Shown here: piece after piece, positions 3,491-60,816 of the stretch | Layout: each line of letters opens with the position of its first letter | Numbering within the stretch: position 1 is the first letter of the stretch | Assembly (NCBI GenBank): GCA_964441285.1 | Contig: CAYTUK010000005.1 | Coordinates: forward strand, 3,596 to 67,595 | Reading direction: 5' to 3' | Source: an uncultured Thiotrichaceae bacterium | Lineage (GTDB): Bacteria; Pseudomonadota; Gammaproteobacteria; SZUA-229 | Length of the DNA: 64,000 nucleotides | The notes under the pieces: generated by a model | What the model was told of the DNA's origin: nothing | What the model saw: the letters and a program-made list of their open reading frames with translations, nothing else | The model's database searches: none | Made by a program: the position numbers and the translations under genes

Positions 3491-3575
3491 TTACTGAAAC
3501 GGATATTTATGGTTCAAGACCGTCAGCAGGGATGCGATGTCGAGCCGACATGGATGTATTGGCAGCGTGTCGCTG
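3491..3575 (+). repeat. Palindromic extragenic element, copy E (left arm and core present; right arm degenerate)
   Basis: ttactgaaacggatatttatggttcaagaccgtcagcagggatgcgatgtcgagccgacatggatgtattggcagcgtgtc. No matching right arm is visible before the tyrS stop. Confidence 0.65.
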
Positions 3576-3588
3576 ATTTGAAATAATT

Positions 3589-4788
3589 TTAACGTACAGA
3601 AAGTTTTGCAAACTTGCGTTTACCTACCTGGAAAACAGCCTCGGTACCTGATTGAATTCTGATTGATTTATCCGCTATTTTTTCACCATCAATTTTTACT
3701 GCACCCTGCTGAATCATCCGCATAGCATCACTGGTGCTAGAACACAATCCTGCGTCTTTTAATAAATTGGCAATCGGATAACCTTCATCGGATGCATCAA
3801 AATTCAATTCAGGAATATTATCCGGTATTTTATTTTTAGCGAACTGCGCAATAAAGCTTTGTCGTGCTGATGTTGCTGCCTGCACAGAATGAAACCGTGT
3901 AATAATTTCTTCCGCCAGTAAAAACTTGACATCGCGTGGATTTTTACCCTGATCAATTTCCTGCCTGAAACCTTCGATTTCAACCATTGGGCGGAAACTT
4001 AATAATTCAAAATAACGCCACATTAACGCATCAGAAATTGACATGATTTTACCAAACATATCATTGGGCGCATCATTAATACCAATATAATTGTTCAATG
4101 ACTTGGACATTTTTTGCACCCCGTCCAGCCCTTCGAGAATCGGCAGAGTGAGTACACACTGTGGCCTTTGTCCGTGTTGTTCCTGTAATTGACGCCCCAT
4201 TAACAAATTAAACTTCTGGTCAGTGCCACCCAGTTCTATGTCCGCTTTCATCACCACTGAATCATAGCCCTGAATTAAAGGATAGAGAAACTCGTGTATC
4301 GCGATCGACTGCCCACTTTTATAGCGTTTACTGAAATCATCACGTTCCAGCATTCTAGCAACCGTGCTGCGGGCGGCAAGCTTGATCATCTCGGCACTGC
4401 TCATTTGAGCCATCCATTGTGAATTAAACAAAATCTGTGTTTTCTCTTTATCCAGAATTTTGAATATTTGTGTCTGATAAGACACAGCATTATTCTCAAC
4501 ATCTGTTTGCGTCAGTGGCGGACGAGTTACTGATTTTCCAGTAGGATCGCCAATCATGCCGGTAAAATCGCCAATCAGAAACATGACTTCATGTCCCAGA
4601 TCCTGAAACTGGCGTAATTTATTGATCAATACGGTATGTCCAAGATGTAAATCCGGCGCGGTTGGGTCAAATCCAGCTTTAATACGCAGAGGTCGTCTTT
4701 CATTTAGCTTTGCTATTAACTCCTTTTCGACAAGAATTTCATCTGTGCCGCGCTGAATTATCTCAAGTTGCTGCTCAATGGACTTCAT
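3589..4788 (-). CDS. tyrS: Tyrosyl-tRNA synthetase
   Basis: 399 aa with [10 protein letters not shown] (HIGH) and KMSKS. It is divergent from the M23 peptidase, as in Pseudomonas. Confidence 0.95.
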
Positions 4789-12875: not shown

Positions 12876-13000
12876 TTAAAAATCTCACTTATCATCCGTT
12901 GTATTATTCAACGAAATACTGGTGCGAATAAATACGATTATTGTATTTATCATAACAGACCACACAGAAAATATAAGTTTAAACTCAGGAAATATTTTAT

Positions 13001-13132
13001 ATTACTGAAACAGATGAAAGGGCTACCTGGTGTTCGAGACCGTCAGTCGCAGGGATGCGGGTGTCGAGCTTACATGGAAGTATTTACAGCGTGTCTTGAA
13101 CACCAGGTAGCCTTTTCATCCATCCTGTTAGC
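13001..13132 (+). repeat. Palindromic extragenic element, full copy A (arm 13013..13040, core 13041..13092, arm 13093..13120)
   Basis: The 28-bp arms are gatgaaagggctacctggtgttcgagac and gtcttgaacaccaggtagccttttcatc. They are complementary except for two positions that would be G·U in a plus-strand RNA. The core is cgtcagtcgcagggatgcgggtgtcgagcttacatggaagtatttacagcgt. Confidence 0.85.
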
Positions 13133-15284: not shown

Positions 15285-15376
15285 AAACTCACCTCTATGC
15301 CCTTACCTTCATATAGAAAACAACGAATTCTAACAGACTAAACATTAATTCGATAACAAGATATTAATATGGACCT

Positions 15377-15504
15377 ATTACTGAAATGGATGGAACAGAT
15401 ACTTATGGCTCAAGGCCGTCAGCAGCAGGGATGCGGGTGTCGAGCTTACATGGATGGATTAACAGCGTGTCTTAATAATAAGTATCTGTTTCATCCATCC
15501 TGTT
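15377..15504 (+). repeat. Palindromic extragenic element, full copy B
   Basis: The arms are atggatggaacagatacttat and ataagtatctgtttcatccat. They are complementary but differ in sequence from the arms of copies A, C and D. The core is cgtcagcagcagggatgcgggtgtcgagcttacatggatggattaacagcgtgtc. Confidence 0.85.
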
Positions 15505-15574
15505 CGTCATACTGGGCTGGACTCGGCAGGGCTATACGGGCGTTGAGATTTTGTATTTCTATCGAGTATTTTAG

Positions 15575-15970
15575 CTAACCGCAGCTAAAGCTGATGTACT
15601 GGCTGCCATTAAAGACCCGAACACTCTTTTAGTCGATGCACGTAGCCCGGCAGAATATATTGGCTCGCCTCGGCAAAAACGTTCGGGGCATATTCCGAGG
15701 GCTATTCTCTTTCCCTGGGAAATCTCCGTGGATAGCACGCACGGTAACAAACAACGCTCCCATGCCCAGTTAAAACAAATTTTAGCCGCCGCTGGTCTGG
15801 CAAATAAAAATAAACGCTACATTCTGTATTGTCATACAGGTCATCGAGCCGCTCGATTATTCACCATGTTTAAATCCCTGGGGTATCCTCATGTTAAACT
15901 TTACGATGGTTCCATGCAGGAATGGGAAAGGTACAGCACCCTCCCCGTCAAACTCGGTCCCAATCCCTAA
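15575..15970 (+). pseudogene. Rhodanese/thiosulfate sulfurtransferase catalytic domain, 5'-truncated (no N-terminal domain, no in-frame ATG/GTG before residue ~52)
   Basis: The frame is open from the stop at 15572..15574. Its translation …VLAAIKDPNTLLVDARSPAEYIG…GHIPRAILFPW…CHTGHRAARLF…LYDGSMQEWE matches the C-terminal domain of SseA/TST-type enzymes, including the active-site Cys loop. The only ORF start is the GTG at 15728, and the element copy B lies immediately upstream. Confidence 0.55.
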
Positions 15971-20103: not shown

Positions 20104-20308
20104 AGATTCCCCCAGCTTTTACTTATTAAGGATATATATTCTGGGAAAATAACATAATAAGCAGAAAAATAGCAACTGCAATGGTCTAATGCCACCCGAC
20201 TCTTTAATAAGAGATAATAATTATCAACGATTAAGGTGTCATAATGAGTCAAAAACGAACATACAAAACAATATCACTGTTCCTTTAATGATCAGTGATA
20301 TGAATCGG

Positions 20309-20388
20309 GGTTTATTGCTGTGGCCGACTGCCGCATGGAAACGGCAGTCGAGCGTACGGGGATGTATTTACAGCGGGTTACAGCAATC
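20309..20388 (+). repeat. Divergent variant (F) of the palindromic element; its right arm overlaps the apbC stop codon
   Basis: cgactgccgcatggaaacggcagtcgagcgtacggggatgtatttacagcg. The core hairpin is replaced by ctgccg/cggcag but keeps GTCGAGC…GTATTTACAGCG. The arms ttattgctgt and acagcaatcaa are different from the other copies. Confidence 0.6.
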
Positions 20389-21517
20389 AATTGTTTTGAA
20401 TAATAATATTCGGAAATTTAGCTGAATAGTCTTTTGCCTTAAGTGATAATCTGGCTGCTGTGCGACGAGCAATATCACGATAAATCTGACTGGTTTTGCT
20501 ATCAGGGTCATCCGCTACGCTGGGATGGCCTTCATCCACATTGACTCGAATATTAATGTCCAGGGGCAGAGCACCAAGAAAATCCACATTGTACTGCTCG
20601 CTCATGCGGTTGCCACCACCGGCACCAAAAATATGCTCAGCATGGCCACATTCAGAACAGATATGAATACTCATATTCTCAACAATACCCAGCACTGGAA
20701 CTTCCACCTTCTCAAACATTTTCAGACCTTTACGTGCATCAAGCAACGCAATGTCCTGCGGTGTAGTAACAATAATTGCGCCACTAACCGGTACTTTTTG
20801 CGCCAGCGTTAACTGGATATCGCCAGTACCTGGCGGCAGGTCAACAATTAAATAATCCAGTGATTTCCAGCGCGTATCACGCAGTAATTGCTCCAATGCC
20901 TGCGTTACCATTGGGCCACGCCAGATCATTGGTGTTTCTTCATCAATCATAAAACCAATTGACATTGCCTGTAATCCATGTCCTCCCATTGGCTCCAGTG
21001 ACTTACCATCACTGGACTCTGGTTTTCCCTTGATACCTAACATGCGCGGAATACTGGGGCCGTAAATATCAGCATCAAGAATACCCACGCGGGCACCTTC
21101 CTGCTGCAATGCCAAAGCGAGATTGACTGCGGTAGTTGACTTACCCACACCACCTTTGCCGGAAGCCACAGCAATCACATTCTTGATGCCTTCCAGTGGG
21201 TTCATACCACCCTGGACAGAGTGACTGCCAATTTCCCAGCTTGCATCCACCTGTGCAGTGGCGATACCATCAACAGCTTCAATTTTTTCTTTCAACTCAG
21301 CACTTAAGCCATCAACAAAACCAAACGCTGGATAACCCAGTACAACTTTTACTTTGACTGCATTACCTTCAATAGTAATATCTTTAACCGCACCCGCTGT
21401 AACTAGATCTTTCTCCAGATTCGGATCAATATACTGTTTCAGGGCTTGTTCTACCTGTTCTTTTGTTACGCTCATGGCGGAAACTCCACAACTAAATAAT
21501 ATAAACTGGATGTGCAT
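20387..21517 (-). CDS. apbC: Fe-S cluster carrier ATPase ApbC/Mrp
   Basis: P-loop GKGGVGKST and CxxC (CSEC). It is divergent from metG as in E. coli. Confidence 0.92.
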   Translation of the reverse strand: MHIQFILFSCGVSAMSVTKEQVEQALKQYIDPNLEKDLVTAGAVKDITIEGNAVKVKVVLGYPAFGFVDGLSAELKEKIEAVDGIATAQVDASWEIGSHSVQGGMNPLEGIKNVIAVASGKGGVGKSTTAVNLALALQQEGARVGILDADIYGPSIPRMLGIKGKPESSDGKSLEPMGGHGLQAMSIGFMIDEETPMIWRGPMVTQALEQLLRDTRWKSLDYLIVDLPPGTGDIQLTLAQKVPVSGAIIVTTPQDIALLDARKGLKMFEKVEVPVLGIVENMSIHICSECGHAEHIFGAGGGNRMSEQYNVDFLGALPLDINIRVNVDEGHPSVADDPDSKTSQIYRDIARRTAARLSLKAKDYSAKFPNIIIQNN

Positions 21518-33541: not shown

Positions 33542-33583
33542 ATTGTTTGTGTTATGTTGATTTTTATGAGAAATATCTAAGCT

Positions 33584-33714
33584 ATTACTGAAACAGATGA
33601 AAAGGATACTGGTTATTCAAGACACGCTGTCAATACATTCATGTAAGCTCGGCACCCGCATCTCTGCGGCTGACGGTTTTGAATAACCGGCATCCTTTTC
33701 ATCCATCTTAGTAA
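33584..33714 (-). repeat. Palindromic extragenic element, full copy C (inverted orientation) between parE and parC
   Basis: Arms gatgaaaaggatactggttattcaagac and ttttgaataaccggcatccttttcatc. The core is the reverse complement of the family core (gctcggcacccgcatctctgcggctgacgg). Confidence 0.85.
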
Positions 33715-38260: not shown

Positions 38261-38263
38261 CAG

Positions 38264-38330
38264 ACTAACAGTACAGATGAAAAGGCTCCCCTTGTTCAAG
38301 ACCGTCAGCCGCAGGGATGTATTCACACAG
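38264..38330 (+). repeat. Palindromic element, internally deleted/truncated copy G
   Basis: actaacagtacagatgaaaaggctccccttgttcaagaccgtcagccgcagggatg, then tattcacacag. The core is missing about 23 nt and there is no right arm. Confidence 0.65.
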
Positions 38331-60595: not shown

Positions 60596-60736
60596 TTAAA
60601 TAAGAAATTCTCTCTGATACAGGAAAACCCTGCTCTATGCCCCTATGCATCATTCGTGCAAGGGCGTTCTTTTTTTGTTTTCAATAGCTTATCATATAAC
60701 CGAGAATAATGGCGTATCCACATGTTACACAACACT

Positions 60737-60816
60737 TACTAACAGGACGGATGAAAAGGATATTTAATTATTCAAGACCGTCAGCCGCAGGGATGCGGGG
60801 TGCGTTTCAGTAATAC
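60737..60816 (+). repeat. Palindromic element, internally deleted copy H (left arm plus half core, joined directly to the right terminus)
   Basis: ttactaacaggacggatgaaaaggatatttaattattcaagaccgtcagccgcagggatgcgggg|tgcgtttcagtaatac. Confidence 0.7.

Follow-up and report, generated by a model that had tools for sequence, protein, structure and literature searches.

Does the element at positions 15376–15504 carry a pair of binding sites for CsrA/RsmA? The initial annotation raised this possibility from two GGA motifs in the core of the element, the first of them in a hairpin with an apparent GNRA loop, and allowed that so short a motif could recur by coincidence. Here we describe the locus, the other copies in the window (the whole 64-kb stretch of DNA that was analyzed), and related elements from other genomes, and we weigh the CsrA/RsmA reading against its rivals.

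The element at 15376–15504

The locus (copy B, plus strand) is a complete imperfect palindrome of 129 bp. It is matched by the R1 covariance model at 15391–15491 with 72.5 bits and is also contained in repeat families D1–D4. Copy B belongs to a MITE-like palindromic repeat and shows slight wear. The paired GGA motifs can both be read directly: the first GGA (15429–15431) lies within GCAGGGATGC at 15425–15434, and the second (15452–15454) within ACATGGATG at 15448–15456. The start-to-start distance of 23 nt falls inside the 10–60 nt range that had been cited for a CsrA dimer; the permissive distance for dimer bridging is reportedly 10–63 nt. The motifs are placed within the following structural features.

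~15386–15416 paired with 15469–15498: outer stem P1
15417–15442, plus strand: hairpin 1, CGUCAGCAGCA-GGGA-UGCGGGUGUCG, loop motif CAGGGAUG, matching CANGGAYG at 8/8 positions
15444–15466, plus strand: hairpin 2, GCU-UACA-UGGA-UGGA-UUAAC-AGC, loop motif CAUGGAUG, matching CANGGAYG at 8/8 positions

The stem of hairpin 1 contains an A·G and a U·U mismatch, the latter typical of the family. The CCGCA/UGCGG hairpin attributed to this core is the form found in other copies (2547–2670, 33583–33714, 38262–38328, and 60736–60815, with UCGCA in 13000–13124); copy B itself has CAGCA/UGCGG, with one A·G mismatch. The inner stem of hairpin 2 is weakened by a T>G change at 15457 (GUA>GGA), and the minimum-energy fold of copy B is without the canonical second hairpin. 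This fold has an energy of −46.4 kcal/mol (z −4.7), compared with −37.6 kcal/mol for the opposite strand.

An open reading frame of 69 aa (15369–15578) spans copy B, and its coding interpretation was rejected because variation tracks base-pairing, not codons. To the right of the element, a rhodanese-domain frame (15575–15970) runs for ~130 codons from a stop at ~15572. The gene looks 5′-truncated ~70 nt past the end of copy B, since there is no plausible start ahead of the GTG at 15728.

Other copies in the window

Repeat searches and the covariance model identify eight copies of the ~125–130-bp imperfect palindrome in the window, six of which have a full core. Besides copy B, these are:

13000–13124, plus strand: copy A, best preserved; loops CAGGGAUG and CAUGGAAG; R1 match 13016–13115, 96.5 bits
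2547–2670, plus strand: copy C, both GGAs lost (CAAGAAUG, CAGAGAUA); R1 match 2563–2661, 62.6 bits
3491–3591, plus strand: copy D, both GGAs kept in the core; R1 match 3496–3591, 34.5 bits
33583–33714, minus strand: copy E, both GGAs lost by G>A (CAGAGAUG, CAUGAAUG); R1 match 33601–33700, 82.4 bits
20290–20400, plus strand: copy F, variant stems CUGCCG/CGGCAG; loops CAUGGAAA and CGGGGAUG; R1 match 20300–20397, 51.5 bits
38262–38328, plus strand: copy G, internally deleted; repeat family D3
60736–60815, plus strand: copy H, internally deleted; inverted repeat I5

Copy A (−63.8 kcal/mol, z −8.7) has a minimum-energy fold that is identical to the family structure, with a P1 of ~30 bp. Copy C is a member of a subfamily with GAGUCUAC...CACC. 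Copy E, the only minus-strand copy in the window, folds at −59.5 kcal/mol. Copy D has a shortened 5′ arm and a missing or degenerate 3′ arm. Copy G has no 3′ arm, and its 5′ arm and the beginning of hairpin 1 run directly into GUAUUCAC of hairpin 2, while in copy H the 5′ arm and hairpin 1 are joined straight to the 3′ terminus GUUUCAGUAAUA. The variant at 20300–20397 is as originally described, with CUGCCG-CAUGGAAA-CGGCAG followed by ACGGGGAUGU, and the two GGA-less copies (2563–2661, and 33601–33700 on the minus strand) have indeed lost both GGAs through G>A changes, for which decay was the right reading.

The arms of the window element are A+T-rich, with termini of the TTACTRA type, in a window of 43.9% GC. 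When the core is read on its GGA strand, the termini are of two types, TTACTGAAACAGATG and TTACTAACAGGATGGATG, and either type can be 5′: one arrangement is seen in 13000–13124 and 15376–15504, and the other in 2547–2670, 33583–33714, 38262–38328, and 60736–60815. The core and the arms therefore occur in two relative orientations, resembling flip/flop isomers, in one genome. The same two-way arrangement also involves loci L041, L078, and L111.

Conserved core and its covariation

The core is a three-way junction formed by the long, variable stem P1 and two adjacent hairpins, with a centre of ~58 nt. In every lineage it follows the scheme GAC-[CGUC + variable stem]-CA N GGA Y G-[stem′]-UCG-A-GCY-UACA-UGGA-NGUA-UUYAC-RGC-GU-GUC. 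The long arms that enclose it differ wholly between lineages, yet they remain complementary.

Covariation was counted on 62 dereplicated sequences, with shuffles and slid partners as controls. Over 39 pairs, 90.2% of the combinations are standard-paired, as against 61.9% in shuffles and 34–42% when the partners are slid, and the covariation score is 0.708 compared with 0.177 for shuffled sequences. Double changes are found in all 23 P1 pairs examined (23/23) and in 6/10 hairpin-1 pairs. At the outer Y/R pair of hairpin 2, 52 sequences have C-G and 10 have U-A, and the pair is never broken. Among copies that were found by the model outside the pattern selection, the stems of hairpin 2 covary as well (UAC/GUA to CCC/GGG; GCC/GGC to GGC/GCC), and the loop-2 GGA is kept in 23/24 copies found by the model and not by the pattern. 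The proposal that the GGA is presented in a hairpin loop is borne out by this covariation of the hairpins.

Some copies carry an insertion of 50–110 nt within loop 1 (after CAGGG) that is itself a hairpin (CAGATTTTTGCTCCTGCAAAATCTG...), as in L022, L023, L064 (4652–4863), L006 (1463–1610), L035 (3526–3673), and L150 (3111–3261). A second small element appears to be nested in the first GGA loop of these copies.

Loops and the Csr/Rsm consensus

The two motifs had been compared with the E. coli CsrA SELEX consensus, which is said to be RUACARGGAUGU. For a family-level comparison, loop bases were counted in one representative for each of 76 dereplicated families from other genomes, along the eight positions of CANGGAYG.

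Loop 1 (of 76): C 71; A 68; N: U 33, G 30, A 9, C 2; G 73; G 72; A 71; Y: U 63, also C 4; G 68
Loop 2 (of 76): C 76; A 74; N: U 64, G 10; G 75; G 75; A 75; Y 65 (U 36, C 29; others G 7, A 3); G 76

Both loops follow CANGGAYG position by position across these families, in agreement with the resemblance to CsrA sites seen in the window. GGA is present in loop 1 of 66/76 families and in loop 2 of 75/76. The full motif is matched by loop 1 in 58/76, by loop 2 in 63/76, and by both loops in 49/76. The GGA-GGA distance in the R1 consensus is 23 model positions, as in copy B. With the base ahead of the GGA varying freely and the stems covarying, the conservation of GGA is beyond coincidence on the family-wide check. 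The GNRA loop does not survive as a feature: it is incidental, given that U and G precede GGA about equally often (33 and 30 of the 76 families, with A in 9 and C in 2).

The consensus given for RsmA/RsmF is CANGGAYG with an invariant GGA displayed in a hairpin loop, and tight binding by RsmF requires at least two such sites (bioRxiv 10.1101/315341). The dual-GGA observation is stronger at the family level than is visible from the window sequence alone, and the core is, in its sequence, structure, spacing, and strand, as good a predicted dual Csr/Rsm site as in silico work can define.

Relation to known RNA families and repeats

Several known systems resemble the element, and the closest in architecture is the TwoAYGGAY motif (RF01731), which is found in gamma-proteobacteria, Clostridia, and gut samples and often has a very large P1, of 24 base pairs for example (Weinberg 2010 supplement, PMC2864571). 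Both share two sequential hairpins that arise from a common basal stem and occurrence in Gammaproteobacteria, and the terminal loops of the element resemble AYGGAY. The long P1 is also shared, with at least 23 covarying pairs in the element compared with those 24 base pairs. Pseudomonas TwoAYGGAY is multi-copy, often arranged as divergent doublets, with short 5′ repeat arrays (bioRxiv 10.64898/2026.09.22.753630); the present element is likewise multi-copy, forms divergent doublets, and has extra AYGGAY hairpins in some variants (L025, L051). The loops of copy B read AGGGAU and AUGGAU, in which the GGA and the flanking A and Y match AYGGAY. Across the family, loop 1 is ARGGAU as often as AYGGAU, and Y precedes GGA in about half.

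The differences lie in the junction and in hairpin 2. The junction linkers of the element are 0, 1, and 2 nt, whereas the Psychromonas TwoAYGGAY rows compared have AG, CUAAGUU, and GACUGG. Hairpin 2 of the element has a 5-nt 3′ bulge (UUYAC), in contrast to the 4×3 internal loop in those rows, from which the invariant UCGAGCYUACAUGGANGUAUUNACRGCG of the element is also absent. The RF01731 model, run without a positive control, gives no match at its gathering threshold on the window or on 17 other loci, and even a relaxed cutoff of E ≤ 10 yields none for copy A, copy B, or L021. A scan with all Rfam families at gathering thresholds finds no family in the window. We therefore keep the element outside RF01731, which does not score and whose Psychromonas members differ from it in junction and hairpin-2 geometry.

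The YPAL/RU-2 repeat of Yersinia and Erwinia (Delihas 2007, PMC2759123) is likewise an intergenic, multi-copy, hairpin-forming miniature element. With the YPAL/RU-2 and ERIC consensus sequences taken from PMC2759123, the central 53 nt align at ~77% identity between YPAL and the element, a stretch in which the two hairpins and their GGAs are included (score 27; highest shuffled score 15). Similarity does not extend to the whole ~168-bp unit, of which only these 53 nt align: YPAL is 168 bp long, with unrelated outer sequence and a hairpin-1 stem of CCGCGCC/GGCGCGG, compared with ~125–130 bp for the window element. In Y. pestis, the YPAL copy at L040 4960–5082 lies ~600 bp from a match to STnc490 (RF01405; 125.6 bits).

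Ysr224 (RF02770), an Rfam family built on a Yersinia transcript of YPAL and listed as a temperature-responsive sRNA of Y. pseudotuberculosis, covers the same conserved core but is modelled on the opposite strand, with UCC and not GGA, and includes Yersinia-specific arms. It is the only Rfam family common to all three regions scanned at an E-value threshold, with scores of 134 bits for Y. pestis YPAL, 36 bits for L021 (an unrelated MAG), 15.7 for copy B, and 15.6 for copy A. The window copies do not reach its gathering score of 70, and the matches are always on the opposite strand.

The sponge RNAs of the Csr/Rsm systems (CsrB/C, RsmX/Y/Z/V/W) also display several CANGGAYG motifs in hairpin loops. 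These are single-locus, promoter-driven sRNA genes under GacA/UvrY control, whereas the element is repeated at dispersed loci, each copy has two sites, and no promoter was detected at copies A and B. ERIC (IRU/RU-1) is similar in its length of ~127 bp, its imperfect palindrome, its intergenic location, and a central 10-nt identity, GAGCTTACAT. Identity with ERIC was rejected, as the alignment to the 127-bp consensus (PMC2759123) scores 11 against a shuffled maximum of 12, and blastn of the element finds no match in 5,426 E. coli genomes. The centre of copy A (13066–13082, GAGCTTACATGGAAGTA) is the same as that of ERIC, GAGCTTACAT-AAGTA, with the GG from the second GGA added; the match is not significant against shuffles and is either a curious coincidence or very old kinship. 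CGTC-tagged REPs were considered as well and set aside: CGUC does precede hairpin 1, but the published CGTC REPs, mostly from Alphaproteobacteria, are without a second hairpin and have 8–9-bp stems, 4–5-nt loops, and a CCA tail.

Taken against these systems, the element is very probably a copy of a TwoAYGGAY-type repeat with a YPAL core.

Distribution and mobility

One genome per species was scanned with the exact core pattern TCGAGCYTACATNNNNNNATTNACRGCG, in which the second GGA and the whole of hairpin 1 were left free. The pattern occurs at no fewer than 117 loci, and dozens of gammaproteobacterial lineages share the core while having unrelated outer arms. Hosts among the matches listed include Yersinia, Methylotuvimicrobium, Stenotrophomonas, Shewanella, Marinobacter, and Rheinheimera, as well as Nitrococcus, Aquisalimonas, Cellvibrio, Halieaceae, Moraxellaceae, and Thiotrichaceae MAGs, together with others. 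Two matches fall in bins outside Gammaproteobacteria, L077 (Lentisphaeria MAG) and L083 (Bathyarchaeota MAG), which are probably mis-binned contigs and not true hosts. The arms of the window element are closest to those in uncultured Thiotrichaceae MAGs and marine-sediment-type metagenome contigs. One window protein is also present in Logan run SRR6439356. Carriage by phages was rejected, as 2.9 million viral contigs contain no more than 4 matches.

In other genomes, 15 of the 21 close element pairs are divergent (minus-then-plus, with 5′ ends facing) and separated by spacers of 44–221 bp; no doublet is seen in the window itself. Doublets are located at L047 (1152–1505 and 3419–3807), L076 (3712–4083 and 5986–6315), and L017 (3640–4060), with more at L109, L099, L052, L019, L060, L026, and L107. 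The spacers of the Stenotrophomonas doublets contain runs of GCTTT/GCTCT/GCAAAAGC 5–6-mers, like those reported 5′ of Pseudomonas TwoAYGGAY. A target-site duplication was sought in eight complete copies, and no flanking direct repeat exceeds chance.

Strand, gene context, and constraint

Within the stems, G·U and A·C combinations on the GGA strand stand at 117:38, with an excess of G·U in 40 sequences and of A·C in 6; in a hairpin, base composition cannot generate such an asymmetry. In copies A and B, folding of the GGA strand is also more favourable than that of the complement, by 9–10 kcal/mol (9.6 in copy A). From the wobble asymmetry and the better fold it follows that it is the GGA strand whose ability to fold as a single strand is maintained, as would be expected equally of RNA and of a strand-specific ssDNA intermediate.

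The gene context shows no preferred direction. For ~120 elements with crude ORF calls, tandem contexts comprise 18 sense and 27 antisense cases, and neither orientation towards the neighbouring genes is favoured; just three of the window copies are informative, of which two are sense and one is antisense. Many copies lie within ~100 nt of a gene end. No promoter-like or terminator-like site was found at copies A and B, and an own promoter or intrinsic terminator was accordingly rejected for these two. A tblastn search with E. coli CsrA, which covered the window and ~1.3 Mb from other loci, gives no match; it is silent on the genome as a whole.

The window's own lineage was sampled by the arms only, yielding 54 unique metagenome loci, of which 43 are alignable. 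Both GGAs are kept in 36/43 of these arms-ascertained copies. The GGA columns are not significantly better kept than other conserved core columns (mismatch 3.5% vs 5.2%, p ~0.28, 43 copies), and extra purifying selection on GGA is not detected in this set. Together with the two window copies that are without both GGAs, this makes single copies look unconstrained. Given the conservation between lineages and the lack of single-copy protection, the constraint on GGA is evident between lineages and not on individual copies. Such a pattern is expected if selection acts on propagating copies, whatever the reason.

Possible roles of the core

We envisage a MITE-like repeat with lineage-specific arms and a conserved dual-GGA core that would engage CsrA/RsmA when transcribed, an account to which we assign even chances. 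That the loops function as CsrA/RsmA sites is equally a balanced proposition. In a copy transcribed on the GGA strand, the two loops could occupy a single CsrA/RsmA dimer, one at each of its RNA-binding faces. Copies that lie within mRNAs may then recruit the protein locally, and the whole set of copies may titrate it. The element itself would spread as mobile DNA, with GGA conserved in the copies that propagate or persist while individual copies decay. What stands of the CsrA/RsmA reading in the initial annotation is the consensus, the loops, the 23-nt distance, and the strand marked by G·U; the random orientation, the missing promoter at copies A and B, the strand of Ysr224, and the behaviour of GGA within the lineage speak against it. 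CsrA binding was proposed for TwoAYGGAY in 2015 by Gardner and Eldai (PMC4333381), and a 2026 preprint repeats the proposal and calls the link between mobility and regulation unresolved (bioRxiv 10.64898/2026.09.22.753630), so that the same hypothesis has been published independently for an architecturally identical motif.

A mobilisation role of the same hairpins is a serious rival, if in our estimate an improbable one. The core would be a recognition and folding determinant for the element's own movement through a strand-specific ssDNA (or RNA) intermediate bound by a putative enzyme, and its likeness to CsrA sites would be coincidental. Constraint between lineages and not among individual copies is what selection on propagating copies alone should produce, the G·U(T) asymmetry suits ssDNA hairpins as well as RNA, and the random orientation relative to genes, the flip/flop-like isomers of core and arms, and the divergent doublets all agree with this role. 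So do the target duplications of YPAL, reported in the Delihas review to be anywhere between 3 and 26 bp long and to be situated at dyad symmetries, which is unusual for DDE transposition. However, no target duplication is seen in the eight complete copies here, an unsystematic look reveals no consistently associated transposase or other gene, and the extra AYGGAY hairpins of some variants need explaining. Chance must moreover account for all seven specified CANGGAYG positions in two loops (~1e-4 per loop for a random 8-mer). If the element is instead a generic structured cis-RNA, the P1 hairpin would stabilize or destabilize its host transcript by blocking exonucleases or by attracting RNases, a role already proposed for YPAL and ERIC, and the loops would serve the fold or another RNA-binding factor. 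The very stable hairpin of copy A is in keeping with this, as are the many copies near gene ends and the reviews in which YPAL and ERIC are reported to be co-transcribed and to alter mRNA stability. We regard it as unlikely: a plain hairpin needs no two base-conserved loops across bacterial orders while its stems drift, copies A and B have no U-tract terminator, and sense orientation is not favoured.

The functional product could also be an Ysr224-like sRNA from the opposite strand, whose CAUCC loops could pair with GGA sequences such as Shine-Dalgarno regions. Ysr224 does match YPAL in antisense at high score in Y. pestis, and weakly in other taxa, and its listing as temperature-responsive points the same way. 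We nevertheless consider this very improbable, as the G·U to A·C ratio shows that the GGA strand is kept foldable, the antisense strand folds worse by the margin given above, and the abundance of Ysr224 in genome annotation merely reflects its repeat nature.

Should the loops prove to be CsrA/RsmA ligands, a global post-transcriptional regulon would be open to rewiring by a mobile repeat, whose dozens to hundreds of copies would also buffer the regulator. A bolder extension, which we offer as speculation and think rather doubtful, is that these are self-propagating miniature elements with a ready-made dual CsrA/RsmA docking module. Their spread, as YPAL in Yersinia and as TwoAYGGAY-like elements elsewhere, would plug new transcripts into the Csr/Rsm regulon and create a distributed sponge. 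Flip/flop isomers and divergent doublets would then be traces of a strand-specific mode of copying that works through hairpins and is as yet undescribed for bacterial MITEs. By tying the orphan TwoAYGGAY to YPAL, the core makes the CsrA question testable in Yersinia, because csrA mutants exist there, the YPAL copies have been catalogued, and YPAL is believed to affect how stable its carrier transcripts are. For Rfam, it emerges that the RF01731 and Ysr224 models each capture just a portion of one larger family, and that the strand on which Ysr224 is annotated is not the one that evolution keeps foldable.
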